Assembly (NCBI GenBank): GCA_965222765.1 | Contig: CBDCVG010000043.1 | Span: 161,053-225,052 of the forward strand | Length of the DNA: 64,000 bases | Origin: Caldora sp. | Lineage (GTDB): Bacteria; Cyanobacteriota; Cyanobacteriia; Cyanobacteriales; Coleofasciculaceae | Direction of reading: 5' to 3' | Shown here: piece after piece, positions 1,391-21,138 of the stretch | Layout of the letters: each line of letters begins with the position of its first letter | Position numbering within the stretch: position 1 is the first letter of the stretch | Notes under the pieces: model-generated | What the model was told of the DNA's origin: nothing | Seen by the model: the letters and a program-made list of their open reading frames with translations, nothing else | The model's database searches: none | Program-made: the position numbers and the translations under genes

Positions 1391-1816
1391 TCAAGCGGCT
1401 TGCTCTTCTTTGACTGTCACAGATAGTTTCAAACCTAGCTCGTTTAACAGTCTTGCAATTACAGGAAGTCTTGGCACTTCTTCCTGAAAAAGCAATTGAT
1501 AGTAATTCTCCAAATCAGAATTAGGTTCGTTTGAAGCTTCAATCAGACTGCTGTGGGCTTCTGCTACATTTTTCAATGCTAGTAGAATATGCTCAAGATC
1601 ACCATCCTCCAAGACAGTATCTAGATAAGCAGCCGCCTCTGCCGGATCTTTTAAAGATTCGATTAGATAGGATTGGTAGCTCTTATGAGTTGGTATTTCG
1701 TCTTTTGTTACGATAGAGCTAATTCCCTTGGCTGTGCCTCCATAAACCCCATATTCTAATCTAGTTTTGAAAATACATAAGTAATAATACTGAATTTTAT
1801 GTCGCCAACACTTCTC
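1391..1816 (-). pseudogene. HigA-like addiction-module antidote (TIGR02684-like) remnant. It has an open frame but no canonical start until a TTG at 1612.
   Basis: The translation ...HKSYQSYLIESLKDPAEAAAYLDTVLEDGDLEHILLALKNVAEA...PRLPVIARLLNELGLKLSV matches the antidote-family pattern (fDpaeYL..peaiaaYLnaaLedGD...vL.aLG.rLsv). The upstream part of the frame is overlapped by the AT-rich T5orf172 insert boundary. Confidence 0.35.
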
Positions 1817-3169
1817 TTATTAGTCGTATTAGCCTTAAGTGGTGTATTGATATACTCAGGTAGTGAATTAATAAAAATACAGCGTAAGAATGACAAACTA
1901 CGAGAAGAATTACTTAGGTATGAAAGTCTTTCTTCTCTGGAAGAAGAAAAAATTAAACTATATTCAAATATTGCCGACCTTGAAAGTAAACGAGAATTCT
2001 TAAACACTCAAATTAGAGAACTTCAACAGAAGTCTGGTGAGCTTGAGGCAAAAGCTTATCTTCAGGCTATAGATTCTTATGAACCAAAATATGATTTTAT
2101 AAATTCTGTAGATTACATCAATCGACTGCAAAACATTAAAAGACAGCAAGAAAGAATGCGAAAAAATGAACAAGCATTTATTTGTAATACTCAATGGAAA
2201 GTGAGAGAAAGTGAGAGAGAAGGAACAAAAATGATAAAAGACCTTCTCAAGCTGGTAGAGTTTTCATTTGAAACTCAATGTAAGTATAACACCAAAGAAG
2301 TTAGATACAATAATGTTGATAGTTTAAAGAAAAAAACAAATACCACTTTTAAAAAAATAAATAATTTTTTAAAAAAGATAGATTGTAGAATTTCAGTTGA
2401 GTACTTAGAACTCAAGTTGATAGAATTAGATCTACATTATGAGTTAGAAGAAAAAATACAACAAGAAAAGGAAAGAGAGAAAGTAATTCGCGATCAAATT
2501 AGACAAGAAGAGAAAGAGCGTCGTCAATTAGAAAAGGCTAGAAGAGAAGCTGAAGAAGCTGAGGAAATAGAAAAGCAATATGAAGAAGACATTGACAAAC
2601 TGCGTCGAGAAATGGAACAAGCAGTAGGTCTACAGCTAGACGACTATAATCGTCAAATTAAACATTTACAGGAGCAACTTGGTAAAGCTCAAATAAATAA
2701 AGAAAAAGCTATTTCAACTTTCACAAGACTTAAGTCCGGCTACATTTATGTAATTTCTAACATTGGATCTCTTGGACGAGATGTATATAGAATATTTATG
2801 ACTAAAAATAGTAATCCAGATGCATATATCAGAACAATGAATCCTATAGTTCCATTCCAATTTGATGTGCAGTTCAAGATTTTTTCAGAAGATGCTTCAG
2901 AGACAGTACAGCATTTACATCAGGAGTTCAATGATAAAAGAGTAAATACAGATAATCAAAGAAGGGAGTTTTTTAAAGTTTCATTTGATGAAATCGATCA
3001 GTTTGTACAAAAAATTTATAGAGAGACTGGAGCTTTAACAATTGAAAAACGTGAAAAAGTACCTCAGGCTCTTGAATATCGTAGAACTAGAGCTGCTGAG
3101 CGGAGAAAGGATAATCACACAAATTTAAATAATGTCTATGCACAAGAAGGTCAAATGGCTCAAGAATAG
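1799..3169 (+). CDS. DUF4041 coiled-coil protein with a C-terminal T5orf172 (GIY-YIG-like) domain, sitting in an AT-rich insert
   Basis: The N-terminus has a TM helix plus long coiled coils (E/K/R/Q-rich). The C-terminus reads GYIYVISNIGSLGRDVYRIFMTKN...VPFQFDVQFKIFSEDASETVQHLHQEFNDKRV...REFFKVSFDEI, the typical T5orf172 arrangement. GC drops sharply from ~1750 to 3200. Confidence 0.6.
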   Translation: MSPTLLLLVVLALSGVLIYSGSELIKIQRKNDKLREELLRYESLSSLEEEKIKLYSNIADLESKREFLNTQIRELQQKSGELEAKAYLQAIDSYEPKYDFINSVDYINRLQNIKRQQERMRKNEQAFICNTQWKVRESEREGTKMIKDLLKLVEFSFETQCKYNTKEVRYNNVDSLKKKTNTTFKKINNFLKKIDCRISVEYLELKLIELDLHYELEEKIQQEKEREKVIRDQIRQEEKERRQLEKARREAEEAEEIEKQYEEDIDKLRREMEQAVGLQLDDYNRQIKHLQEQLGKAQINKEKAISTFTRLKSGYIYVISNIGSLGRDVYRIFMTKNSNPDAYIRTMNPIVPFQFDVQFKIFSEDASETVQHLHQEFNDKRVNTDNQRREFFKVSFDEIDQFVQKIYRETGALTIEKREKVPQALEYRRTRAAERRKDNHTNLNNVYAQEGQMAQE

Positions 3170-3202
3170 GAACGAATTAATAAAATACTGAACTTGAATA
3201 AG

Positions 3203-4588
3203 TTATAAAGAGCGAATGATTCTAAAACCAATATTTTGAGAGTTTTTGTTAGTATTACCGTGCCAACGGTAAGCAGAGCGACATCGTAGGGGTTCGTTAC
3301 GCCATGAGCCACCACGCATGACACGAGTTTGATTTTCACTATTGTCTAGCCATTTATCTCCATTAGTAGGTGCATCATTGTAACTATCATGCCAATGATC
3401 TAAACACCACTCCCAAACATTACCATGCATATCGAACAGTCCAAAAGCATTAGCTATCTGGAAATGTCCCACTAGAGTAGTTTTTTGAAGATAAATTCCT
3501 TTAGGTTCTGAGCGATAGGGATAGCGACCATCATAATTAGCTAAGTTGCTAGTAATAGTTTCCCCAAAGTGAAAAGGGGTTGTAGTCCCAGCACGACAGG
3601 CATATTCCCACTCTGCTTCACTAGGAAGGCGATACTCGTGACCTGTTTTTTGAGATAAGCGATCGCAAAACTCGACCACATCATGCCAAGAAATTTCGGT
3701 AACGGGGTGACTTTTACCTCCAAGACGCGACGGACGAAGTTTGAGCTTCTGACGGACTTCAGTTAAAGAAGCAACTTCTTTCCACTGTGCTTTTGTAATA
3801 GGGTACTTGCTTATTAAAAATGGTTTGATTGCTACTGAGTGTTGAGGTCTTTCATTAGAGTATCGCTTTCCTTCTGTTTCCGGTGAACCCATTAAAAATG
3901 CTCTTCCCGGAATATAAACCATCTCTAAAGTTACCCCATTGCTAAGGTCTTCTGTTAAGTAGTGAGCTTGTCTTTGACGACGGCTAATCTCTTTGCCTTG
4001 GATATCTACCGTCACTGTTGTAAATTCAAAGGCTTGAATACCAGGAAGTGATGGGATAACTAACTTAGCTTCTTCTGACTCCTTCAATTCTTCTGCATTT
4101 TGACTAGAAGTAGAAAGGATAAACTGATTATCTGGCTGCCTAGTGAATTGTGACTGGGTTGGAGATTTTAAATTAGTATTGCTATACGTGCCTGTAAAAT
4201 TTTGCGAAGTGACTTGACCAAAGTCTGAGTTGAAACGTTTCAATGGTTGACTGCTTTTGTACTCGATACATTCGCGATTGAGTTTTTGAGTATCTAAAAC
4301 TGTAATCTCCGCGATGATATTGTTTAGTTTATTCCTGGCTTCAAAACCAACCCACGCACTATTTGCAAACTCATTAAGGAATTTTAATGATTGAACTTGT
4401 CCTTCACAGAAGATGAGTTCAATCAATTCTGAAAAAAAGACTAAATTATTTTTTTCAAAAGAATCTATTTTGGCACTTAGATGCTCAAATCCTGTGATCA
4501 TCAAGAGCGCTCTACGTTCTGGAACAGTTTGAGTCTTCGGCAAATAGGCTAGCAACTCCACTAACTGAGATTTGATACTCATAATCAT
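3203..4588 (-). CDS. Effector protein with an N-terminal adaptor (EAD-like) domain and a C-terminal formylglycine-generating-enzyme (FGE-sulfatase/SUMF1) domain
   Basis: The C-terminus carries RLPSEAEWEYACRAGTTTPF...GNVWEWCLDHW...MRGGSW...RSAYR (the FGE-sulfatase family signature). The N-terminal ~90 aa (LVELLAYLPKTQTVPERRALLMITGFEHLSAKID) are homologous to the N-terminus of the adjacent protease gene. Confidence 0.8.
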   Translation of the reverse strand: MIMSIKSQLVELLAYLPKTQTVPERRALLMITGFEHLSAKIDSFEKNNLVFFSELIELIFCEGQVQSLKFLNEFANSAWVGFEARNKLNNIIAEITVLDTQKLNRECIEYKSSQPLKRFNSDFGQVTSQNFTGTYSNTNLKSPTQSQFTRQPDNQFILSTSSQNAEELKESEEAKLVIPSLPGIQAFEFTTVTVDIQGKEISRRQRQAHYLTEDLSNGVTLEMVYIPGRAFLMGSPETEGKRYSNERPQHSVAIKPFLISKYPITKAQWKEVASLTEVRQKLKLRPSRLGGKSHPVTEISWHDVVEFCDRLSQKTGHEYRLPSEAEWEYACRAGTTTPFHFGETITSNLANYDGRYPYRSEPKGIYLQKTTLVGHFQIANAFGLFDMHGNVWEWCLDHWHDSYNDAPTNGDKWLDNSENQTRVMRGGSWRNEPLRCRSAYRWHGNTNKNSQNIGFRIIRSL

Positions 4589-4630
4589 TGAACTTTAGAT
4601 GCTTGTAGAACCTCTCCAAAACTGGGTAGT

Positions 4631-5686
4631 CTATTGTGCTGCCCTGAGCAGATTTACAAGCTGTGAAGGTAAGTCAGCTAAAATACTCTCTACCAGTATG
4701 CCTTCATTTCTGAAGTAACGCTGCTGAGTTATTGGTTCAGAGATATTAACTCCAGCATGATGCAAAGCAACAACCTCCCACATATCATTAAAGACTGGAG
4801 AGCCAGAAGAGCCTGGTAAGGTAGAGGTTATATACTGCACCACATTACTACCCACGTATTGAACAAAGTTGTTTTGTAGTGAAATTTGCTTAGGTTGTCC
4901 TAATGGGTGCTGAATAATATTAACTCGGTTATCCTTACGAATCACTTTCGGTAAGAGTGGTAAACAGCTCCATTTTTGTCCAGGTTCCCCTTCAAGTTGA
5001 ACTAAAGTATAGTCAAGAGCTTTGTTTGTATGAAAAACTCCATTAAATTTAGCTCGATACTCATCTGTTGGTTGTGCTTCTCCTTGAAAGTTCTCTTCGT
5101 AGTTAAAACGAAAAATTGTATCTGACAGTAAATTTGAATCAGGTAAAACATGATTGTTAGTCATAAACAAATCCTGAGTCACTAGAAATCCTGTACCTGA
5201 CCAACGTTCTTGGCTTGTTCGTACCCCAACATAGGCAACTGACTGCCCTACTTGAATCCCCTTTTGCAAGAATGAGATTGGGCGCAGCGTATTCTCACCA
5301 ATTATGTTCTCTAACACCTCTGTGGGAGTTTCTCTACCTCGCCACTGATCAATAGCAGGTAAAGTAGAGATAGGAGTCATCATCTCATACTTCGTCAGCA
5401 ACCTGTCTAAAAATTCTTGCTGCTGAACTCCTACAAAGCCTTTCAGAGTGTTTAAGAACAACCCTAGTGCCTCATGGTCATAGGTTAAACGCCCGCGATT
5501 AGACAAATAGCTCACGATCTCACTAACTGCCACAAATGAAGCACCAGAAAGATCAATCATTGGAGCTAATTCTTGTAGTCCTGCTAGCTCTAAAATTTGC
5601 TGACGCGATCGCTGTGTAGTTAGCTCTGGTAGCTCTTTTAGGAGAGTTATTAACTGCTTGCGGTCTTCAATTTCTAAATTGACCAT
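4631..5686 (-). CDS. Effector protein with the same N-terminal adaptor (EAD-like) domain and a C-terminal trypsin-like serine protease domain
   Basis: The protease motifs are GTGFLVTQDLFMTNNHV and GSSGSPVF (Ser-His catalytic region). The N-terminus MVNLEIEDRKQLITLLKELPELTTQRSRQQILELAGLQELAPMID aligns with the FGE gene's N-terminus. The first ATG is at 5686; a TTG at 5707 is also possible. Confidence 0.8.
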   Translation of the reverse strand: MVNLEIEDRKQLITLLKELPELTTQRSRQQILELAGLQELAPMIDLSGASFVAVSEIVSYLSNRGRLTYDHEALGLFLNTLKGFVGVQQQEFLDRLLTKYEMMTPISTLPAIDQWRGRETPTEVLENIIGENTLRPISFLQKGIQVGQSVAYVGVRTSQERWSGTGFLVTQDLFMTNNHVLPDSNLLSDTIFRFNYEENFQGEAQPTDEYRAKFNGVFHTNKALDYTLVQLEGEPGQKWSCLPLLPKVIRKDNRVNIIQHPLGQPKQISLQNNFVQYVGSNVVQYITSTLPGSSGSPVFNDMWEVVALHHAGVNISEPITQQRYFRNEGILVESILADLPSQLVNLLRAAQ

Positions 5687-5758
5687 ATAAATAACAAACT
5701 TGTGCAAATAATGCCGAAAAACAAACGTTTGAAACTGAATAACTCGTGATACTCCGAA

Positions 5759-6661: not shown

Positions 6662-6713
6662 CCTCTTTTACGATATAGACAATGAGCCTGTGATCTAAAT
6701 CCAGTTTAACTAG

Positions 6714-6830
6714 ACTAGTACCGCTGCGCGGAATTAAGAATTAAGAATTAAGAATTAAGAATGCTTATAGTACGAGCAGAGTAAACTTCCTCAACTAAGT
6801 CTTCTGCCGTGCGTGGATCATCTTGCCAAG
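6714..6830 (+). mobile_element. MITE-like element, copy 1: left TIR ACTAGTACCGCTGCGCGG plus 4x AATTAAG; the right end is degenerate
   Basis: The left ~60 bp are identical to the elements at 20742 and 12941 (reverse complement). The right TIR is only partly recognisable (cttctgccgtgcg). It sits 53 bp upstream of the Uma2 start codon. Confidence 0.6.
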
Positions 6831-9920: not shown

Positions 9921-10077
9921 AGGTTATTGCTAATTTTCAAGTTTATGTTTCACACATTACCGTCTTTACCTAGAATAACGTCAGTTAGGGAACAAGCTTT
10001 AAACCCAAACAAAGTTTGCTTTTAACTAAAATGTCGGGCTAAGTCCCACGTTCCAAAGGGTCACCGTAGGTAGTTCA

Positions 10078-10332
10078 CTAACTAAAGTCTTCCTCCATCT
10101 GGGCTATTTCTGCTAGAGATTTCCAACCAGGTTGCCACAAGGCACAATCTTTAAGCTGTTGAGCATTCAACCAAAAACGGACATTCGGGTCACACGAAGC
10201 AACCATTTCCGCAAATACCCACTTCCCCCGATTTTGACGGTTAATCACTTGGAAATGTCGCCAGCCCCAGGTTTGTTGCTGGGATGTCCATTTAGAACCA
10301 ACTAGGTGAGGGAATTTTTGCTTTTTTGACAT
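10078..10332 (-). CDS. Tryptophan-rich small protein (TIGR02450/DUF2389-like)
   Basis: MSKKQKFPHLVGSKWTSQQQTWGWRHFQVINRQNRGKWVFAEMVASCDP...; the ORF stays open upstream to 10485, but the family size fits the ATG at 10332. Confidence 0.45.
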   Translation of the reverse strand: MSKKQKFPHLVGSKWTSQQQTWGWRHFQVINRQNRGKWVFAEMVASCDPNVRFWLNAQQLKDCALWQPGWKSLAEIAQMEEDFS

Positions 10333-10631
10333 TCTTGCTAAATTTATATAGTTGGGATCCTCTTCAATAAGCACTAAGGGCAAAGCGGTGTACCACTTTA
10401 CCTGCACCGAAGACCTAATATATGCTTCGGTTACCACTTGGAAAAAAGTTGCGGTTGTCAGGAATCTAGTACAAGAAGGCTCCAATGCAGAAGACTGTAA
10501 TGTTTATGGTATCTGCTTTTTTGCCTATCGTTAAGAAGCTTGATTATTTCCACCGTACTGCACTAGATAGCCACCTTGTAGCCTTATTGAGCGAGTCATC
10601 TGTTTATACCCTTACAAAACCCTTATTGTTG

Positions 10632-12245
10632 ATGAAATTTTCCTACGAACTTTCAACAGCTTTGCTTGGTGCAGCAGCAATCATACTGGTGCAACCTCAA
10701 ATCACTCTAGCTTTGACAGCTTCGGAGGTTAATGCTATTGCTGAAAAGATTACTGTATTGATTGCGCAAGAGGAACAACAAGTTGCTTCAGGAGTGATTG
10801 TTGGCAAAGAAGGAAATACTTATTTTGTTTTGACTAGTCAACATGTAGTACAAACTGAGGGTCAGTACCAGATTATGACTCCTAGTAATGCTAAACATTC
10901 TGTTAACTACAGCAACATTATCAAATTACCTGGGATTGATTTAGCTATCTTACAATTTATTAGCCCAAACATTTATCAAGTTGCTACCTTTGGTAATTCC
11001 AGCGAAGTAATTGTGGGTTCTCCAGCTTATATTTCTGGGTGGCCAAAACCTGGTTTTGCTCTCCAAGATGAAGCACCAATTCGTCTTTTTCACTCTGGAC
11101 AAATTTCAGCTCGTCAACCTCTCAAAGATGGTTACGAGTTAATCTATACTACCCCTACTCGTCAAGGAATGAGTGGAGGACCGGTGCTCAATGAAAATGG
11201 CCAGCTGATTGGTATTCATGGGCGTACTGATTTACCTACCCTAGAAACAGATCCCAAGCCTTGGGGAGTTAATTTAGGTATTCCCATCAACACGTTCATT
11301 GAATTAGCTCCTAGTCTTTATACTGAACAAGGAGAAATCAAGCTCAAGGCGCAAGCTTACCAGGAAGCCATTGCCTATTTTAACCAGGTACTAAAGTTTA
11401 ATCCCAACTCTGCTGCTGCCTATAATGGGCAAAGTTATGCTCATTTTGCTCAGACAGGGTATGAGGAATCTATTCAGAAGGCAACCCAAGCAATCAAGAA
11501 TAACCCTAAATTAGCTGAAGCTTACCTCATCCGGGGGGCTAGCTATGCTCAGCAAGGAAGTCACCGCCAAGCAATTGAGAATTTTAACGAAGCGATCGCA
11601 ATTAATTCTCGTTTTGCTGATGCCTATGCTTTGCGAGGGGTAAGTAAGGCAAAAATAGGGGATTCTAATGGAGCTTATAAGGATGTTGAACTGTCTCTTA
11701 AACTAGCTCCTAAAAGTTCTATTGCCTACATCTGCCTTAGCCAAATTCACTCCCTTGTTGGCTACAGGATAGGTGCAGGGGAGGCTAGTAGGATTGCAGA
11801 TGAACTCTTAGATACTTCTAGGGAGATAAATCCTTATCAAATGACGCTCAATCAAGTACTGGAAAGCCGTTTACTTCAAGATCTTGTTGTACAGACAACG
11901 CCAACTTCTTCTAACCCTCAGACAGCAGTAAATCCAGGAAATGAGTACTATACCAACACCATTAATCTAGTTGAGGCTTGCAAGTCTTATGATGACTCGC
12001 CTCACCAAAATGAGGCACTGCTGTGGCTACAAGATCAAATCCCTAAGTCTACTCTCAAAACATTTACGATGATGTGGCGACTGCAACTCATCTTTGACAT
12101 GGATAAGGAGCCGATGGAGCTCGTTAACGTTTGTCAGCATTATGAGGGTAAGGAACACCAAGATAAGGCTTTAGAAAGGCTACAGACTCGAATTAACCAG
12201 GTAACAATTATTGAGTTTGCCCAAAGGTGGTTCCAAACTCAGTAA
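10632..12245 (+). CDS. Secreted trypsin-like serine protease with TPR repeats and a C-terminal domain of unknown function
   Basis: Signal-peptide-like start MKFSYELSTALLGAAAIILVQP. The protease motifs are VLTSQHVV and GMSGGPVLNENGQLIGIHG, followed by about four TPR units. An alternative upstream ATG lies at 10485. Confidence 0.75.
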   Translation: MKFSYELSTALLGAAAIILVQPQITLALTASEVNAIAEKITVLIAQEEQQVASGVIVGKEGNTYFVLTSQHVVQTEGQYQIMTPSNAKHSVNYSNIIKLPGIDLAILQFISPNIYQVATFGNSSEVIVGSPAYISGWPKPGFALQDEAPIRLFHSGQISARQPLKDGYELIYTTPTRQGMSGGPVLNENGQLIGIHGRTDLPTLETDPKPWGVNLGIPINTFIELAPSLYTEQGEIKLKAQAYQEAIAYFNQVLKFNPNSAAAYNGQSYAHFAQTGYEESIQKATQAIKNNPKLAEAYLIRGASYAQQGSHRQAIENFNEAIAINSRFADAYALRGVSKAKIGDSNGAYKDVELSLKLAPKSSIAYICLSQIHSLVGYRIGAGEASRIADELLDTSREINPYQMTLNQVLESRLLQDLVVQTTPTSSNPQTAVNPGNEYYTNTINLVEACKSYDDSPHQNEALLWLQDQIPKSTLKTFTMMWRLQLIFDMDKEPMELVNVCQHYEGKEHQDKALERLQTRINQVTIIEFAQRWFQTQ

Positions 12246-12428
12246 TTTAAGGTGTTAGGTGTTAGGTGTTAGGTAATGGAATTGAGAAGTGATTAGAGCC
12301 TTGAAGCTACAAGGAAAGCTATTAAGGAAGAGAGTAAATCTAAAATCTAAAATCTCAATGACGCATTTAAATTGGTTTATCTTAATCTCCGCATCCCTAC
12401 ATTTCTCCGCCTCAGCACAATTTACAAT

Positions 12429-12707
12429 TTAAATGCACAAAAGCTTATAGGCAGTTTCCAGTGCTGATCTGTGTTTAAAGCCTCTAGAGTTATCCGAAAC
12501 TTTATAGCGGAAGGAGTGGGAGGCTCCGGTACGCTCAAAAACCCCTAATCGATGGAGCATAGGAACTAACCGCCTGACGCTATGGGTATTCACTTTTGTT
12601 ACTTGTGCAATTTCCTCCAGATTCAGCCACTGAGAGGATTCCTTAACGCCAGCATAAACTCGAATTAAATGGGGAAGTTGGGGCTGCACTTTGTTGACAT
12701 CTTTCAT
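12429..12707 (-). CDS. Small putative winged-helix/HTH DNA-binding protein
   Basis: 92 aa with the HTH-like segment LNLEEIAQVTKVNTHSVRRLVPMLHRLG. It is on the same strand as, and immediately downstream of, the NB-ARC gene. Confidence 0.4.
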   Translation of the reverse strand: MKDVNKVQPQLPHLIRVYAGVKESSQWLNLEEIAQVTKVNTHSVRRLVPMLHRLGVFERTGASHSFRYKVSDNSRGFKHRSALETAYKLLCI

Positions 12708-12828
12708 TAAACTTCCTTGAAATTTAATAAATTTTAAGGAAGAGTCTAACGAGTAGTTGTGAAAAAAATGTGAAAATCTAAGGACAAAAGATTAAAAAGC
12801 TTACCCTACAAGCATTCTGCCTTCTTAC

Positions 12829-12941
12829 ACTAGTACAGCGCGGCAGAAGTAACTAACCAGTTTGAGATCGATAGAATCCTTACTCTATAAGCATTCTTAA
12901 TTCTTAATTCTTAATTCTTAATTCCGCGCAGCGGTACTAGT
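12829..12941 (-). mobile_element. MITE-like element, copy 2 (113 bp, inverted orientation): TIRs ACTAGTACCGCTGCGCGG / CCGCGCTGYACTAGT flanking 4x AATTAAG
   Basis: The reverse complement is ~92% identical across its full length to 20742..20854. It ends 5 bp after the NB-ARC gene stop codon. Confidence 0.8.
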
Positions 12942-12946
12942 CTCGA

Positions 12947-15076
12947 TTACGAGATCAGAAACAGCACAATTAAGGAGATTGCGATCGCTAACATCAAAGT
13001 ACCTAAAATGATATCTCCTAGGTGATACTCATGGGGAGTTGCTTTCGTAGATTGTACTTTATCTCCCTTATCCTCCCATCTCCCCATCTCCGTGTCAGGT
13101 GCGTCTCGCGTCTCCGCGTCTCCATTAATCTCCCTATCTACTACATTTACTTGCAACTCTGTATGAGGGGTTTCAGAAGTTATATCCTGCATTGACTCTA
13201 GCCATTCTGCTACCCGTTGAGCTTCTGATAACTCCGGTTTCAGTTTAGTGAGGGCTTCTCGCCATAGAGCAACAGCTTTGTGTTTGTTGCCCTGTTGTAC
13301 ATAGAGAATACCCATATTGACTAGAGTTTGACCTTCTTTGTTAATATCTCCTAGTTTTGTGAAGCTGCCTAGGCTCTGTTCGTAACAATCCCTAGCTTTA
13401 AGCCAATCTCCTTGCTGGGAATAGATATTAGCTAGATTGCCCAAACTCATCGCTTCTGCATGAGAGTCTTCCAACTCCCTGAAAATGCTTAGACTCTGCC
13501 CATAGCGCTCGATTGTTTTCCCCCAATCTCCTTGCCTAAAATAGACTTTACCCAGGTTAGTTAAGGTTTGAGCTTCTTCTTGGGTATTGCCTAGCTCGCG
13601 GGTTGCTTCCAAAGCCCACAATTGAGTCCGTTCCCAGTCAGCCAAGTAAGCACGGATATCAAAAAAGTTAACTAAGCTCTTGGCAAAGGGAACTACTATA
13701 TCCCATGCTTGAGCTTGGTAAGCCCATTCTAAAGAAGCTAACAAGTTGCTGCGCTCAGTCTCAAACCAGTTTAAGGCTGCCGCCAGCAAGTGTGGCTCAA
13801 TAGCTTCTATAGATTGGTGGTTCAAGACTTTCGTGAAATTCTCTGAATTCTCAAGATACCAGCGTGCCACCCTCAAACGAGTTGCTTGCCGTTCCTCTAC
13901 TAGCTCCTCTTGAGCCAATTGCCCTCGGGCAAAAGAGCGCACCAAATCGTGGAAACGGTAGCGCTCCCTTCCAACAGGCTCCAACAGTTGCCTCTCAACT
14001 AGATAATGTACAGATTCCTTGGCGACAGCTGGCTCAACATCTAACAAGGAAGCAGCTAAGGGGAGCGTAAAGTTAGGTCCGGTTAACAATCCCAGTAAGC
14101 GAAACAGGCGAGCAGCAGTTGTATCGAGCTCCTGATAGCTGAGAACAAGGCTAGCTCGTACATCCAAATCGCTCAGGTACAGTTGTGCTAGTCGTTGCTG
14201 CTCATCAGCAAGTTGATGTGTGTATTCTGCTAGTTCCCAGTTTGGTTGATTTCGTAGAGTATTACCAGTGATGCGGATAGCTAGGGGTAGCCCATTGCAA
14301 AGATTGATCAAGTTTTTGCTTGCTTCCAGTTCAGCCTGAGAGCGTTCTACTCCTACCAGATCCCGTAGCAGAGCCAAGGCATCTAGTTCCGTCATCACTT
14401 CTAAGTCAACGACAGTAGCTTCCCTTAGATTCTCAAACTGTTTGCGCGTTGTAACTAGGACTCCACAAGTGGGACTATTTGGTAGCAAAGGCCGTATCTG
14501 AACCTCATCCCGAGCATTATCCAGCAGTACCAAAGCTCGTTTATCTGAGAGCAAGGAACGGTAGAGTTCAGTTCTCTCTTTGAGAGTTTCAGGTATCAAA
14601 TCGTCTTCGATACCCAAGACTCGCAAAAAACTAGCTAACACTGCCAATGGCTCCTGGCTCTGGCTCTCACTTCCCCTGAGATTGATGTATAGTTGAGCAT
14701 CTGGAAAATACGACTGTAGTTGATGGGCAATGTGGATAGCAAGAGTTGATTTACCGACTCCTGCTATACCAGTCAATGTACAGAGCTTAACAAGGCTCTC
14801 GCCTTGTAAGGCAGAAGGAAAGAGTCCTTCATCCTTCTTCAAAGTGGGGTCTTTTTCTTTAAGCTTTGGTGTTGCCTGTTGCAAACAAGCTTTCACCTGC
14901 TCTAATTCTGCTTGGCGACCTATAAAGTTGGCAATATCAGAAGGGAGCTGATGTATGGATGTAGGCTGAACTAAGGTACTTTCAAACAGCTGCATGACTT
15001 TTTTATTGTCACCAGCTACCACGCCTTCTACTAAATCGTGAAAAATTAGTTTGTACTTTGGTCTATCTTCAGCCAT
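12947..15076 (-). CDS. NB-ARC (STAND) ATPase with TPR repeats and a C-terminal transmembrane anchor
   Basis: The P-loop is GIAGVGKSTLA and the Walker B-like motif is LVLLDN. There are about five TPR units (...NLGKVYFRQGDWGKTIERYGQSL...). The C-terminus ends ...LGDIILGTLMLAIAISLIVLFLIS (a single TM helix). Confidence 0.8.
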   Translation of the reverse strand: MAEDRPKYKLIFHDLVEGVVAGDNKKVMQLFESTLVQPTSIHQLPSDIANFIGRQAELEQVKACLQQATPKLKEKDPTLKKDEGLFPSALQGESLVKLCTLTGIAGVGKSTLAIHIAHQLQSYFPDAQLYINLRGSESQSQEPLAVLASFLRVLGIEDDLIPETLKERTELYRSLLSDKRALVLLDNARDEVQIRPLLPNSPTCGVLVTTRKQFENLREATVVDLEVMTELDALALLRDLVGVERSQAELEASKNLINLCNGLPLAIRITGNTLRNQPNWELAEYTHQLADEQQRLAQLYLSDLDVRASLVLSYQELDTTAARLFRLLGLLTGPNFTLPLAASLLDVEPAVAKESVHYLVERQLLEPVGRERYRFHDLVRSFARGQLAQEELVEERQATRLRVARWYLENSENFTKVLNHQSIEAIEPHLLAAALNWFETERSNLLASLEWAYQAQAWDIVVPFAKSLVNFFDIRAYLADWERTQLWALEATRELGNTQEEAQTLTNLGKVYFRQGDWGKTIERYGQSLSIFRELEDSHAEAMSLGNLANIYSQQGDWLKARDCYEQSLGSFTKLGDINKEGQTLVNMGILYVQQGNKHKAVALWREALTKLKPELSEAQRVAEWLESMQDITSETPHTELQVNVVDREINGDAETRDAPDTEMGRWEDKGDKVQSTKATPHEYHLGDIILGTLMLAIAISLIVLFLIS

Positions 15077-15159: not shown

Positions 15160-15696
15160 TCAGGCATTACCAGGAATCAAAAGCTCCATTGAAGTCATGA
15201 GAGTACTAAGTACAGAGGTTCTAAGATTAGGATTAACTATCACAATGGGAGGGCGATTACTCTCACTTACATAACCTAACTGGAGCGTAATTTCTTCTGA
15301 AGACAAGGCTCCTGAACAATCCATATGGGTTAAACCAATAATCATCGGTATTTCTACTCGCTGTTCCATAAACGAGAGAATTGAGCGAGCATAGGGGAAA
15401 TCATCAGGTCGATGAGCTGCTACCAACAGGATATAAGTCTGAGCATCTTGAATCAAAATATCCCACATGAAATCAAAGCGGGATTGACCTGGAGTACCGT
15501 AGATATGTAAATCAATATCAGGACCAAATGTAACTTTACCAAAGTCGAAAGCAACTGTGGTCTCTTCCTTATCTATGGATATTTCATCAGTAACAGTTCG
15601 TTCTATTTGTACAACTTCAATTTCACTGGCAGTTCGCACAAAGGTAGACTTTCCTGCTCCAACAGTCCCTGTTACTACTAAACGCATATTTTTCAT
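15160..15696 (-). CDS. Roadblock-associated small GTPase (COG2229 / conservon CvnD-like), copy 1
   Basis: The P-loop is GTVGAGKST, the switch II motif is YGTPGQ, and the NKxD equivalent is THMD. It is ~60% identical to the protein at 16313..16948. Confidence 0.75.
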   Translation of the reverse strand: MKNMRLVVTGTVGAGKSTFVRTASEIEVVQIERTVTDEISIDKEETTVAFDFGKVTFGPDIDLHIYGTPGQSRFDFMWDILIQDAQTYILLVAAHRPDDFPYARSILSFMEQRVEIPMIIGLTHMDCSGALSSEEITLQLGYVSESNRPPIVIVNPNLRTSVLSTLMTSMELLIPGNA

Positions 15697-15849
15697 GACA
15701 TTTTGCTCCGAAAAAATATTTGTTATTGGTTGTTTGTCTCAGCGTTAGTGTAGATATTTAAGGTAGATAGTGAAATAAACAAATAACCAACAACAAATCA
15801 CAAATACTTACTGCTACTATGGTTTCGATAGACAAGTAGCAAGGCTTAA

Positions 15850-16221
15850 CTAAGCTAATGCCGGCTTAAGCTCGGTAACAGTGCGTTTAATTTCTAACAT
15901 CAGCACTCCCTGCTTTGCTGCTTTACCAGCTAGTACGAGAAAGACTGCATCTTCACCACAACTAGTCAAAATGCTAAAGCCTTCATTACCCTCAACATAG
16001 ATGCGATCAATTGCACCCCGGACAAGTTCCTTTCCAATACGTTCCCCTAAAGAAAGCATAGCAGCCGACATAGCTGATACCCGTTCGTCATCCATACCAC
16101 CAGGTAAACTGGAGGCTAAGGGCAAACCATCAGGAGTAACCATTGCTGCTCCCTGAACATCACTAGTGCCAGTGACAAAGCTTTGTAATATCTGTCCAAG
16201 TTTTTCAGAATTGATTGCCAT
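15850..16221 (-). CDS. Roadblock/LC7 (MglB-like) domain protein, copy 1
   Basis: 123 aa reading ...GAAMVTPDGLPLASSL...AMSAAMLSLGERIGKEL...FLVLAGK..., a typical Roadblock fold sequence. It differs from 17344..17715 at only 2 of 123 residues. Confidence 0.8.
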   Translation of the reverse strand: MAINSEKLGQILQSFVTGTSDVQGAAMVTPDGLPLASSLPGGMDDERVSAMSAAMLSLGERIGKELVRGAIDRIYVEGNEGFSILTSCGEDAVFLVLAGKAAKQGVLMLEIKRTVTELKPALA

Positions 16222-16312
16222 AATTGTGTTCCTACTTTAATTAAATTGAATATTTATTTTTATCAAAAATTAGATGATTTTTTGACAAAAATCAATTAGA
16301 GATTTAGCTATT

Positions 16313-16948
16313 TTAAAAATCTCGTGACAAAGATCTTGTGGATAATTGATAGGAATGTTTTGTCTGAGACTGAGCTGCTTGACTAACTGCTCGCCTCGTT
16401 ATCAATTGCTCAAAATTACATTGAGAAAGCATCAGAGCCATCGAAGCCATAACAGCTTCAATTACTGAATGTTTATCCCTAGGATTTACTCGCACAAACA
16501 GGGGTTGTTGTAACCTATTGATATAGCCCAGATTTAACATTATTTCTTCTGGAGCCTTTGCTTCTGGATAATCCATATGGGTTATACCAATAACCATTGG
16601 GATTTTGACTCGCTGATTCATAAACGTAATAATCTGACGAGCTTGGCGGAAATCATTGGGGCGGTGGGCTGCTACTAGCACAATATAAGTGTGAGCTTTT
16701 TGGATCAAAAAATCCCACATAAAGCTAAAGCGAGATTGACCGGGAGTGCCATAAATTTGTATATCCATGGCAGAACCAAATGAAATGCGACCATAGTCGA
16801 AGGCAACAGTAGTTTTTCTCTTAAGCTGGGCTGTTTCATCGGTAGCAGTGCGTTCTGTACTGATAGCTTCAATTTGACTAATTGTCTGCACAAAGGTAGA
16901 CTTTCCAGCTCCTGGAGTGCCAGCTACAACTAAACGCATAGTTTTCAT
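16313..16948 (-). CDS. Roadblock-associated small GTPase, copy 2, with a ~30-aa C-terminal extension
   Basis: The motifs are GTPGAGKST, YGTPGQ and THMD. The tail QCNFEQLITRR...SRDF is absent from copy 1. Confidence 0.72.
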   Translation of the reverse strand: MKTMRLVVAGTPGAGKSTFVQTISQIEAISTERTATDETAQLKRKTTVAFDYGRISFGSAMDIQIYGTPGQSRFSFMWDFLIQKAHTYIVLVAAHRPNDFRQARQIITFMNQRVKIPMVIGITHMDYPEAKAPEEIMLNLGYINRLQQPLFVRVNPRDKHSVIEAVMASMALMLSQCNFEQLITRRAVSQAAQSQTKHSYQLSTRSLSRDF

Positions 16949-17343
16949 TTGATTCTGCTCCGAAAGATTATCTAAAATTCATCCAACCAAATTAACTCGG
17001 TAACTAGGGAATTTTACATGGGGGTTTTAAACCTCCATGTAAAACCTAGTATCTATAGAAATGGAGAGCTCTTACTCCTAATGCTAATAACTAAAAAAAT
17101 GTTAACTATCAACCGTTAACTATTCACTGTTGAGACCATGCACCAATACTGAAATCTGGCAGAATCTTTGCCTATACCTAACCTAATTGAACTGATGGTA
17201 GTTACTGCATCAAACTTGAGCAATCAAACCTGTTAAGATGCATGGTAGTTCTACGTCAAGTCCACCTTAAATTCACTCTGATGACCAGATAATTGCTAAT
17301 TAATCGTTCCTCGATTAACCTACAAACAATTGGCTAGATTTAA

Positions 17344-17715
17344 CTAAGCTAAAGCAGGCTTAAGCTCGGTAAGAGTTCGCTTAATTTCTAACATTAGCAC
17401 TCCCTGCTTTGCTGCTTTACCAGCTAGTACTAGAAAAACTGCATCCTCACCACAACTAGTCAAAATGCTAAAGCCTTCATTACCCTCAACATAGATGCGA
17501 TCAATTGCACCCCGAACCAGTTCCTTTCCAATACGCTCTCCTAAAGAAAGCATAGCAGCTGACATAGCTGATACCCGTTCGTCATCCATACCACCAGGCA
17601 AGCTAGAGGCTAGAGGTAAACCATCAGGAGTAACCATTGCTGCTCCCTGAACATCACTAGTGCCAGTGACGAAGTTTTGTAGTATCTGTCCAAGTTTTTC
17701 AGAATTAATTGCCAT
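17344..17715 (-). CDS. Roadblock/LC7 (MglB-like) domain protein, copy 2
   Basis: ~93% nt and 98% aa identical to 15850..16221. Confidence 0.8.
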   Translation of the reverse strand: MAINSEKLGQILQNFVTGTSDVQGAAMVTPDGLPLASSLPGGMDDERVSAMSAAMLSLGERIGKELVRGAIDRIYVEGNEGFSILTSCGEDAVFLVLAGKAAKQGVLMLEIKRTLTELKPALA

Positions 17716-17799: not shown

Positions 17800-18354
17800 T
17801 TACATAGTATTTGCACCAGTTTTGATCAAACGCCTGAAAAGACCTTCAGTCCAACCAGTTTCTCGGAGAACAGCAGCTGAACTAACTTCTACGTAAGCTT
17901 GCTCAATGAAAGCTAAATCAATCATGCAAATTCTGCTTAAAGCATCAAGCAATTCTATAGGTTTGCCATCTACTTTTAGTTGTTTGCGAGCTTCATTAAT
18001 TACGGTTGCCATTGCTGGCACAACGTGTTGAGGTCCAATGCCAATTTGTACATGTACTAAACCAATGCGCCAACGACGATCAGCATAAGAATCACCCCAT
18101 TCATCCATCCCATTGAACATTTCGGCAAACCATTGAACAAAGGTTTCCCGTAGGCGATGCATACGTCCTTCTTTTTCATTCAAAATAGCGCTCATTTCTG
18201 GATCGCGACCCAAGTAAGCATAAAAATGATCTGCCATTTCTGGAGCAATTTCTTTACCCCAATCGAGATTAGATTTTAGGATTTCTTTGTCTTCTGCGGT
18301 AAAAGCAACACGCTTTTCCATTGTAGTCATAAAATCATGAGGATTTAAGGACAT
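17800..18354 (-). CDS. Single-domain protoglobin / globin-coupled-sensor-type globin (no output domain)
   Basis: Contains HRLRETFVQWF...YADRRWRIGLVHVQIGIGPQHVVPAMATVINEA, the sensor-globin signature. The ATG is at 18354; an upstream TTG is at 18381. Confidence 0.7.
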   Translation of the reverse strand: MSLNPHDFMTTMEKRVAFTAEDKEILKSNLDWGKEIAPEMADHFYAYLGRDPEMSAILNEKEGRMHRLRETFVQWFAEMFNGMDEWGDSYADRRWRIGLVHVQIGIGPQHVVPAMATVINEARKQLKVDGKPIELLDALSRICMIDLAFIEQAYVEVSSAAVLRETGWTEGLFRRLIKTGANTM

Positions 18355-18959
18355 ACATCTCCTTCTTGTATCAAAAAGCAATCAAGTTCATTTCATTTCT
18401 AACAATTTAATATGCTACTGTCTAGTTTTATTTTGACATTTTGTTTAAATTTAAGAAAAATATTTTTTTTGTTTTTAGAGTAATTTAGTTTTTTTTTTAA
18501 AGAGAAATTAAGATTGTCGAATTAATTAAAAATGTATTAATTGTAACAATTTAAATTAATGATTTTTACCCTAAAATCTTTTTCTATCCAAATAAGTGCA
18601 AGGAAAAAGCGTCATGAGACTCAAAAGATGAGCACAAATGATGAAAATCTACCTTGTGAATCATGGATAATCACTCCGGAACTGTTGCCTGTTGCCTGTT
18701 GCCTCTCGTCACAACCCGACTTATTCAGCAAGCCCTACTTAAATTATCGCCAAAATGCTTGACCCCTACTGTCCCCTAAAACTGTTTTATCTTTTCAAGA
18801 ATTATTCAGTTCTATCCGGATGGTTTGTCAATGTATTGTTTTTGTATTTCGAGTGGGAGCAAACCTATATTGAATAAGAGTTTTCACGATTATGACTGCC
18901 CAATCCCTCAAGGAATGGGCTTCCCGCCGCTTTTGGTGAGAATTGGCACAGTAATAGAT

Positions 18960-20741: not shown

Positions 20742-20854
20742 ACTAGTACCGCTGCGCGGAATTAAGAATTAAGAATTAAGAATTAAGAATGCTTATATAG
20801 TAAGGATTCTATCTATCTAAAGCTGGTTGGTTATTTACGCCGCGCTGCACTAGT
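20742..20854 (+). mobile_element. MITE-like element, copy 3 (113 bp, complete): TIR + 4x AATTAAG + spacer + TIR
   Basis: ACTAGTACCGCTGCGCGG...CCGCGCTGCACTAGT; see copies at 6714 and 12829. Confidence 0.8.
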
Positions 20855-21138
20855 TTAAATGTGTCTTAGTTTACCAATTTCCAATTCGCAATTCCCAATT
20901 CGCAATTTAATAATTCCCAATTTAATAATTCTCAAGTTAGGATATGAGGAGTAGCTAGCAGTAGTGAACATTACTCAGGCCAGACCTGTGTTCTTTAGGA
21001 ACACAGATATTTTTGGTCGCATGCTTACCTTTTGATTACCCCACCAACAATATTCTCAACATTGGCAGGGTAATACTCTTCATATCACTGGGACATCTTC
21101 TCTTTGGAAGCAACTAACCTCAATTGGAGAGATTATTT

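Follow-up and report, generated by a model that had tools for sequence, protein, structure and literature searches.

A 64,000-nt stretch of Caldora sp. contig CBDCVG010000043.1 (hereafter the window, to whose positions all unprefixed coordinates refer) carries two adjacent minus-strand genes, one coding for a trypsin-like serine protease and the other for a protein that ends in an FGE-sulfatase domain of C-type-lectin fold (FGS; FGE, formylglycine-generating enzyme). Both proteins begin with a copy of effector-associated domain (EAD) 8, of subtype A on the protease and of subtype B on the FGS protein. We propose that the two genes code for a cognate sensor-effector pair whose link is formed by two distinct members of a single family of Death-fold adaptors, a reading to which we assign a probability of roughly 0.55. 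Neither EAD8 nor its presence on trypsin and FGS proteins is a new finding; what is new here is a heterotypic EAD8 sensor-protease pair that lacks a nucleoside triphosphatase (NTPase) and sits inside a conserved cassette with the nuclease gene SNIPE.

Two EAD8 subtypes on a protease and a lectin-fold protein

The initial annotation, made from the sequence alone, had aligned the first ~70 residues of the two products and read them as an EAD-like adaptor. Both genes lie on the minus strand where it had listed them, at 3203-4588 (461 aa) and 4631-5707. The protease gene almost certainly starts at the ATG at 5686 (351 aa, MVNLE...), not at the listed TTG at 5707, because every orthologue begins there and the 351-aa product is on record; the protein collection holds the exact 351-aa and 461-aa products of the two genes. 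The features of the pair, and of the gene that faces it, are as follows.

4631-5686, minus strand: EAD8 (subtype A)-trypsin-like serine protease gene, 351 aa (Pfam, orthologues, recorded product)
5387-5668, minus strand: EAD8 subtype A domain, aa 7-100, predicted six-helix Death-fold bundle
4763-5197, minus strand: Trypsin_2 peptidase domain, aa 164-308 (Pfam, 82.5 bits)
5150-5152, 5012-5014 and 4805-4807, minus strand: protease catalytic residues His179, Asp225 and Ser294 (the last in GSSGSP), intact
4589-4630, unstranded: 42-nt spacer from the protease stop to the FGS start codon
3203-4588, minus strand: EAD8 (subtype B)-linker-FGS (FGE-sulfatase/C-type-lectin-fold) gene, 461 aa, without an NTPase module
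4310-4579, minus strand: EAD8 subtype B domain, aa 4-93, predicted six-helix Death-fold bundle
4064-4309, minus strand: 82-aa linker rich in S, T, Q, E and N (composition), in place of the STAND NTPase (~400 aa or more) of relatives (comparison with L018, L017, L049 and L085)
3206-4063, minus strand: beta-rich N-terminal extension and FGS domain (Pfam match 3212-3925, 184.6 bits)
3296-3298 and 3281-3283, minus strand: FGS Asn431, which replaces the first FGE catalytic Cys, and Cys436, the second, which is kept
3221-3268, minus strand: least-conserved FGS loop RWHGNTNKNSQNIGFR, rich in AAY codons, located where related lectin-fold proteins have the variable regions of diversity-generating retroelements (DGRs)
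3170-3202, unstranded: 33-nt tail-to-tail spacer between the SNIPE and FGS genes
1799-3169, plus strand: SNIPE (PD-lambda-1) homologue, 456 aa (Pfam, PADLOC)
1910-5689: span of nucleotide homology (three-gene cassette), 78-83% to L003/L004 and L005/L006, with unrelated flanks

The protease N-terminus matches Pfam EAD8 (PF19961) at 86.5 bits (E = 2.1e-24, model positions 2-96 of 96, cut-off 27 bits), and that of the FGE-like protein at 23.1 bits (E = 1.2e-4, model positions 2-94 of 96), under the 27-bit gathering score. Orthologues of the FGS gene in L010 and L011 score 21.6-21.7 bits against the same model, and the subtype B EAD8 of a non-FGS partner in L008 scores 29.5 (L and P numbers are our own, for related loci and library proteins, respectively). 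BLASTP aligned the two N-termini of the window directly (25% identity over 92 aa, E = 9e-6). With the close orthologues P0001 and P0002 omitted and more distant subtype B relatives kept, a profile of 177 EAD8 domain instances scored the FGE-like N-terminus at 39.3 bits, whereas the highest score among 2000 shuffles was 12.6 bits. Protease-type EAD8s by themselves yielded a profile that gave 21.7 bits (best of 2000 shuffles, 9.2). A profile-profile comparison, the kind of check that the initial annotation had proposed, carried out with hhalign on the two subfamily alignments, returned a probability of 96.7% (E = 4.2e-10, 88 columns). By these alignments both N-termini are EAD8 domains, with homology that appears genuine over the whole domain. 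The claimed similarity is thus borne out by BLASTP, Pfam, independent profiles and hhalign, although it spans about 90-100 residues and not ~70, and the suspected EAD-like adaptor is the EAD8 of Kaur et al. Chance similarity and a signal or targeting peptide are ruled out by the statistics together with the predicted folded domains.

Both copies are small (~95 aa), all-helical and N-terminal, and sit on otherwise unrelated modules, as domains of the EAD class do. Each is predicted to form a six-helix antiparallel bundle of ~90 residues (pLDDT, the predicted local distance difference test score, 89.5 and 89.0), that is, a Death/CARD-like fold. In the available text of the Kaur et al. papers, EAD8 appears as an all-helical EAD beside bDLD3 and is not classed as Death-like. 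Among 1.84 billion representative proteins, an EAD8 profile recovered 823 at E <= 1e-3, and a word-indexed search with the FGS protein's N-terminus found only 2 relatives.

Comparison of the two copies across loci separated them into two types. Within a locus, the A and B copies share a median identity of 24% (range 17-45%, n = 54 loci), and the window is typical at 23%. The nearest neighbour was of the same type for 84 of 85 protease EAD8s and for 79 of 83 partner EAD8s. Subtype B of the window is 52-84% identical to the EAD8s of other EAD8-FGS genes, 69% to that of the APAZ-like partner in L008 and 41-47% to those of partners that are STAND NTPases (signal transduction ATPases with numerous domains), against 23% to its own neighbour. 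The general rule stated for EADs in the accessible portion of Kaur et al. 2020, that adjacent copies are each other's closest relatives, does not hold for this pair, each copy being nearer to the copies in the same position at other loci. From these identities, A and B are best read as two old, distinct subfamilies, and the pairing as heterotypic because the adjacent EAD8s are of distinct subtypes with a median identity of 24%. The A-A and B-B identity matrices are correlated (Mantel r = 0.80, reached by 0 of 2000 permutations, 50 non-redundant loci), which shows co-inheritance and is compatible with co-evolution. At L005 (8905-11383) both genes have a protease-type EAD8; the remainder of the FGS gene is ~80-90% identical to that of the window and the adaptor switch point lies ~420 nt from its start, which looks like a recent in-situ adaptor replacement or gene conversion.

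The initial annotation was right that the C-terminal domains are unrelated, one matching Trypsin_2 and the other FGE-sulfatase. In the protease, the columns of His179, Asp225 and Ser294 are invariant in 11 homologues, forming an S1-type trypsin-like triad. For the FGS domain, the closest solved structure is PvdO (5hha, E 1.1e-38), true FGEs matching at ~1e-20. Alignment to the FGE of S. coelicolor (2q17/6muj; C272/C277) places Asn431 at the first cysteine and Cys436 at the second, leaving one cysteine of the two. Because the first catalytic Cys is Asn431 and the best match is the non-FGE PvdO, the domain does not appear to be a working FGE; like its relatives in the available text of Kaur et al., it is best regarded as a lectin-fold domain that binds and is not an enzyme. 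A Pfam scan found no NTPase family in either window protein, and the 82-aa linker of the FGS protein leaves no room for an NTPase. A Walker A motif is present in 0 of the FGS-bearing EAD8 library proteins, including the relatives P0001, P0029 and P0030.

The partner slot beside EAD8-trypsin genes

We fetched 80 metagenome loci seeded with full-length protease relatives (38-82% identity) and annotated them with six-frame stop-to-stop open reading frames (ORFs), profiles for EAD8, trypsin, FGS and SNIPE, and a simple Walker A (P-loop) pattern. In nearly all of those with downstream sequence, a second EAD8 gene directly follows the EAD8-trypsin gene on the same strand, and the tight tandem order was seen in 54 related loci. 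Pfam analysis of partner examples revealed EAD8-nSTAND1-WD40 (L018), EAD8-NB-ARC-TPR (L017, L013), EAD8-NACHT-FGS (L049, L085, L058), EAD8-TCAD2 (L036) and unknown domains (L022). A census of the 77 EAD8 library proteins of at least 280 aa counted Trypsin_2 in 10, nSTAND1 in 7, NACHT in 6, FGE-sulfatase in 4 and TIR_2 in 4. In the window, the partner slot is filled by an EAD8 joined directly to FGS, without an NTPase.

The initial annotation had taken both proteins for effectors of an NTPase-centred system whose core is probably encoded elsewhere. Its observation that no NTPase with the same adaptor lies in the window stands: the 64 kb hold only two EAD8 domains, neither of them on an NTPase, a six-frame hmmsearch of the 64 kb found no third EAD8 and no EAD on the NB-ARC protein at E < 0.1, and no EAD copy on a core component (VMAP, iSTAND, STAND NTPase or GAP1) was found there. 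The NB-ARC-TPR protein at 12947-15076, to which a different N-terminus had been ascribed, indeed has no EAD8, and housekeeping genes lie between its gene and the pair. The class of system was correctly recognized to the extent that, in relatives, EAD8 is genuinely carried by STAND NTPases (nSTAND1, NB-ARC and NACHT), but the picture of two effectors with a distant core was not retained. The suggested comparison of gene neighbourhoods did place EAD8-trypsin beside EAD8-STAND in relatives, but with the STAND gene directly downstream and not at a distance, and the FGS gene takes that very slot here. Placing the core elsewhere is thus probably wrong.

Other fillings of the slot were also seen. At L071-L075, L078 and L084 (metagenome contigs), EAD8-trypsin is followed by arrays of 2-3 EAD8 genes (~360-570 aa) with unidentified C-terminal domains. 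At L008 (6001-7299, Chroococcales metagenome-assembled genome, DATNPT010000134.1), EAD8-trypsin is followed by a gene that joins a subtype B EAD8 to a domain matching PADLOC 'Aga_REase-PNTD1-PNTD2' (E 2.8e-92), an arrangement also found in P0037. Since these PADLOC models describe partners of short prokaryotic Argonautes, the L008 partner looks, from the match, like an APAZ-like module wired to a protease via EAD8.

A conserved cassette with SNIPE

The gene that faces the FGS gene codes for a SNIPE homologue with DUF4041 at 2249-2416 and a T5orf172 GIY-YIG-type nuclease domain at 2738-3016 (Pfam; also MUG113). It matches PADLOC PD-Lambda-1 at 313.6 bits (E 6.4e-94, model positions 86-484 of 496, 399 positions), and its hydrophobic N-terminus, MSPTLLLLVVLALSGVLIY, is predicted from the sequence to form a transmembrane-like helix. 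The N-terminal anchor, DUF4041 and the GIY-YIG-type nuclease that define SNIPE/PD-lambda-1 are therefore united in one polypeptide, and they are kept in the cassette orthologues.

SNIPE, EAD8-FGS and EAD8-trypsin together make up a cassette of ~3.9 kb (1799-5686) with a G+C content of 0.36-0.40, compared to ~0.42-0.45 in the adjoining sequence. The same three-gene order occurs in L009 (Rivularia chromosome), L010, L011, L012 and L050, and the flanks of the cassette are unrelated save for L009 versus L011, giving at least six flanking contexts. All distinct loci in which an NTPase-free EAD8-FGS gene lies downstream of EAD8-trypsin have a convergent SNIPE gene (8/8), compared to none of the STAND-partner loci. 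A more distant EAD8-FGS gene, in the marine locus L007, adjoins neither a protease nor SNIPE. A profile search of genome contigs with a 5-sequence subtype B alignment recovered 4 loci only. The protease and FGS genes are probably on one transcript; a promoter and terminator scan of the cassette found nothing beyond shuffle expectation, with no terminator-like site in 3170-3202.

The linkage was also sampled from the other side, with five SNIPE homologues (40-62% identity) picked for their long contigs at a time when their neighbours were not known. In each of the five (L092-L096), SNIPE converges on an FGS gene that lies 16-42 nt beyond its stop. In L092 (Microcoleus), L094 (Trichocoleus) and L095, a Pepco gene and then a caspase (Peptidase_C14)-FGS fusion lie beside SNIPE; L093 (Scytonema) has a lone FGS domain, apparently 5'-truncated. 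In L096 (Nostoc sp. HK-01 plasmid AP018324.1, 37 kb), a B-type EAD8-FGS gene is convergent to SNIPE and EAD8-trypsin lies on the other side of SNIPE. The FGS domains beside the sampled SNIPEs, beta-rich extension included, are 47-70% identical to that of the window over 278-311 residues (67%, 55% and 47% for the caspase fusions of L092, L094 and L095, respectively, over 278-311 aa). Judged by these identities, the FGS beside SNIPE is orthologous throughout while the module attached to it changes. Across these loci the protease is either a caspase or a trypsin, it is attached by fusion or through an adaptor, a Pepco effector is present or absent, and the flanks all changed. The 13 SNIPE-FGS loci, that is, the window and 12 cyanobacterial loci, share ancestry and represent one old, maintained linkage, not 13 independent events.

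The L096 plasmid carries, in order, EAD8-trypsin, an 87-aa ORF, SNIPE and the convergent EAD8-B-FGS gene, with a DDE transposase gene and ParA/McdB-type partition genes close by. A search of plasmids found a SNIPE relative only on this plasmid, which may represent one route by which the cassette spreads. In L092, the SNIPE/Pepco/caspase-FGS unit of Microcoleus sp. FACHB-SPT15 lies between a gene for an NTase-conflict/Polbeta protein and a HamA-helicase (Hachiman-like) gene (712-2472 and 9953-13335), and this region is a defence island. A jackhmmer search started from the L092 Pepco protein found L092, L094 and L095 only, with no hit in the window or the other fetched loci; the cassette also has no Trypco, gasdermin or metallo-beta-lactamase nuclease gene. 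By analogy with the CARD-only inhibitors of phages, copies were sought in viral contigs with alignments of SNIPE and of the protease and with the protease N-terminus; these three scans gave EAD8-less trypsin domains or nothing. The SNIPE paper (Saxton et al., bioRxiv 10.1101/2025.11.03.685801) reports single-gene protection of E. coli and no partner genes, DUF4041, T5orf172 and GIY-YIG are absent from the main text of either Kaur paper, and the Pepco paper (Evans et al., PMC12642450) notes proteases fused to FGE sensors and does not mention SNIPE.

Readings of the pair and other features of the window

If the two genes form a cognate sensor-effector pair, the lectin-fold FGS domain would bind a phage-derived molecule, and ligand-driven clustering of the FGS protein would expose EAD8-B. 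EAD8-B would then dock and concentrate the protease through EAD8-A, in the manner of the Apaf-1 CARD with the caspase-9 CARD, and proximity would activate the trypsin-like domain, which would cut its target. SNIPE itself is one candidate target, and there is precedent for nucleases licensed by proteases. Because a caspase is fused to the orthologous FGS elsewhere (Rosetta-stone evidence), the analogy suggests that the protease and FGS proteins function as a single complex held together by EAD8-A and EAD8-B. On the simplest reading, the pair would be a split version of the caspase-FGS fusions found beside SNIPE in other cyanobacteria, its two adaptors having been grafted from EAD8-trypsin/EAD8-STAND systems and working without an NTPase switch of their own. 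A role as homotypic coupling adaptors has been put forward for EADs, and the combination of EAD8-STAND-FGS with EAD8-trypsin is already on record, in the part available of Kaur et al. 2021 (PMC8195603). The CARD-like domains of bacterial trypsin-like proteases are experimentally essential in defence. Heterotypic, parallel-diverging CARD-like copies would liken the pair to Apaf-1 CARD/caspase-9 CARD and not to a strictly self-associating tag, and a conserved pair free of NTPase would offer a minimal system for asking whether Death-fold coupling alone activates a protease.

Several points weigh against this reading. The functional steps, including the interaction, the ligand and the substrate, are ones that we infer, and a Mantel correlation such as ours is expected of any adjacent co-inherited genes and is no proof of contact. 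The subtype B match falls short of Pfam's own gathering score, and subtype B also occurs on NB-ARC and other P-loop proteins (P0166, the NB-ARC protein P0148, and P0147). A/B heterotypy is not obligatory, since L005 has two near-identical subtype A domains (79% identity over 126 aa). Most close protease relatives have a STAND partner, the known experimental CARD-protease systems require an NLR-like (nucleotide-binding leucine-rich repeat) ATPase, and the NTPase-free version may be crippled or reliant on an NTPase in trans. Moreover, cassette genes are frameshifted or truncated in L001, L003, L005, L009, L040 and L056, which suggests frequent decay, although the breaks may be assembly errors as well as real decay. 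Among these, all that L001 (9999-10645, Nostoc sp. PCC 7524, CP003552.1) retains of the protease gene is 613 nt from its 5' end; L005, L040 and L056 have a split protease gene, L003 and L009 a split FGS gene, and L005 a SNIPE gene in three pieces.

Reliance on an NTPase in trans corresponds to the model of the initial annotation, in which both proteins would be peripheral effectors recruited via EAD8 to a STAND or other NTPase encoded elsewhere. EAD8 does occur on nSTAND1, NACHT and NB-ARC proteins, subtype B specifically on NB-ARC and other P-loop proteins, and the accessible portion of Kaur et al. 2020 reports EAD copies away from a core that correlate with a core-fused copy in the same genome. 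Yet the EAD8 partner adjoins the protease gene in the 54 loci, the FGS gene occupies precisely the place of the STAND gene, the cassette without an NTPase persists in at least six contexts with no EAD8-NTPase in the fetched flanks, caspase-FGS fusions occupy the same position without adaptor or NTPase, and only two EAD8s are found in 64 kb; on balance we regard this model as unlikely. Loss of the NTPase from an EAD8-STAND-sensor gene could instead have left the pair as a non-functional remnant, in keeping with the frequent pseudogenisation among relatives, including the 613 nt retained in Nostoc PCC 7524 and the split genes listed above. We consider this improbable, as all three window ORFs are full length with intact catalytic residues, the EAD8-linker-FGS architecture is kept in 8 loci at EAD8 identities of 52-84%, and the protease orthologues are 78-83% identical. 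We would put similarly long odds on the FGS protein being a DGR target whose C-terminal loop is hypermutated from a template repeat at another genomic site, as happens to the EAD8-nSTAND1-FGE targets of Thiohalocapsa DGR6. The literature, as far as the available texts go, ties EAD8/STAND/FGS proteins and cyanobacterial FGS domains to DGRs, in trans too; the AAY-codon-rich loop before GFR is the least conserved 30-nt stretch (mean pairwise nucleotide identity 0.61 versus 0.71-0.92 for the rest of the final 700 nt in 8 orthologues), and it is sharply divergent in L003 (52% identity versus ~85% elsewhere). Against this, an adenine-tolerant scan and a general repeat search found no template repeat in the window, Pfam found no reverse transcriptase in the 36 window ORFs scanned, no G+C-rich sequence like an initiation of mutagenic homing site follows the loop, many differences between the window and L005 or L003 involve no adenine, and the loop is nearly identical in four diverged orthologues (L009, L010, L011 and L050). 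From this pattern, we read it as a fast-evolving binding loop and not as a hypervariable one.

The association with SNIPE raises a separate question, and here we would give even odds to the pair and SNIPE being independent systems in a small mobile defence islet, their adjacency functionally meaningless. SNIPE protects E. coli alone and its paper names no partners, convergent genes give separate transcripts, Pepco with protease-FGE has been described as a system of its own (PMC12642450), and clustering is general among defence genes. The linkage is nevertheless tight and old: SNIPE is convergent at 8/8 NTPase-free EAD8-FGS loci downstream of EAD8-trypsin, the 5/5 homologues sampled blind to their neighbours have a convergent FGS gene 16-42 nt away, and the SNIPE-FGS link was kept while protease type, attachment, effector and flanks changed. 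A more tentative proposal, which we think possible but doubtful, is that filamentous-cyanobacterial SNIPE is half of a two-layer unit, the other half being an FGS sensor wired to a protease either by fusion (Pepco with caspase-FGS) or by a heterotypic EAD8 pair. The protease would then have one of two roles: to act upon SNIPE, for instance to free the membrane-tethered nuclease or to license it, or to serve as an abortive back-up that fires once cleavage at the injection stage has failed. If so, the version with adaptors would demonstrate that sensor and protease can be coupled by a Death-fold pair in the absence of an NTPase switch. The tight, ancient pairing of a whole clade of cyanobacterial SNIPE genes with a protease-linked FGS, with protease type and mode of attachment swapped, suggests that an injection-stage nuclease cooperates with a proteolytic pathway, on which the SNIPE paper is silent.

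Among known systems, the closest are those combining EAD8-STAND-FGS with EAD8-trypsin (Kaur et al., eLife 2021, PMC8195603; Thiohalocapsa DGR6, Dore et al., bioRxiv 10.1101/2023.09.22.558884), which share with the window EAD8, a trypsin-like protease, a partner with a C-terminal FGS and adjacent genes. They differ in that the window has the 82-aa low-complexity linker in place of the STAND NTPase (present in L049, L085 and L058), and in that no DGR was found in the window and the pair is linked to SNIPE. The Symploca bDLD3 genes (tandem bDLD3-NPCBM/bDLD3-PNPase; bDLD3-FGS), as given in the consulted part of Kaur et al. 2021 (PMC8195603), likewise carry the adaptor directly on a lectin fold without an NTPase, next to an enzymatic effector with the same adaptor. 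In the window, the adaptor is EAD8 and not bDLD3, the effector is a trypsin and not PNPase, and SNIPE, which neither Kaur paper names in its main text, is linked. The CARD-like trypsin proteases of gasdermin-type operons (Wein et al., PMC10312443; PDB 9frr, 8ss1) are accompanied by an NLR-like ATPase and by a gasdermin, phospholipase or nuclease as cleavable effector, whereas the cassette has neither. Pepco and protease-FGE modules (Evans et al., PMC12642450) also couple a protease to an FGE-fold sensor, and the module itself lies beside SNIPE in L092, L094 and L095, but the window protease is trypsin-like and not a caspase, is joined by an adaptor and not fused, and no Pepco was found. The SNIPE homologue has the N-terminal hydrophobic helix, DUF4041 and GIY-YIG-type nuclease of SNIPE/PD-lambda-1 (Saxton et al.); SNIPE was characterised as stand-alone, whereas the window and 12 cyanobacterial loci pair it convergently with a protease-linked FGS gene. 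The resemblance to Apaf-1 CARD/caspase-9 CARD is one of fold and logic only, the apoptosome being eukaryotic and NTPase-driven and its protease a caspase and not a trypsin.

Elsewhere in the window, a Trypsin_2-TPR protein is encoded at 10485-12245 (plus strand), a short way from the NB-ARC-TPR gene at 12947-15076 (minus strand), whose product ends in a hydrophobic helix and lacks EAD8; the two may constitute a separate STAND-protease pairing. Between these genes and the cassette lie housekeeping genes (M50 peptidase, SIS/MurQ-like, DUF3110 and DUF2389). Just past the NB-ARC gene, at 15160-16948 (minus strand), two small GTPase ORFs (ATP_bind_1/Ras-like) and a Roadblock/LC7 ORF occupy a region with internal 300-nt repeats of 74-92% identity, a further copy of which lies at 17326-17625, and a protoglobin gene is found at 17800-18381. 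A repeat with runs of the AATTAAG heptamer is present in three copies (6712-6770, 12825-12943 and 20742-20858), identical over 56-59 nt and, for two copies, 91% identical over 117 nt. One copy lies just past the Uma2 gene that flanks the cassette, and the repeat looks like a miniature inverted-repeat transposable element or one of the short tandemly repeated repetitive (STRR) type. An 880-aa ORF at 30680-33322 (minus strand) has the full Major Vault Protein architecture in Pfam, with Vault repeats (E 3e-65), Vault_2, Vault_3, Vault_4 and MVP_shoulder (E 1.5e-54), and these domain matches identify it as a homologue, in a cyanobacterium, of the protein that forms the vault shell of eukaryotes.

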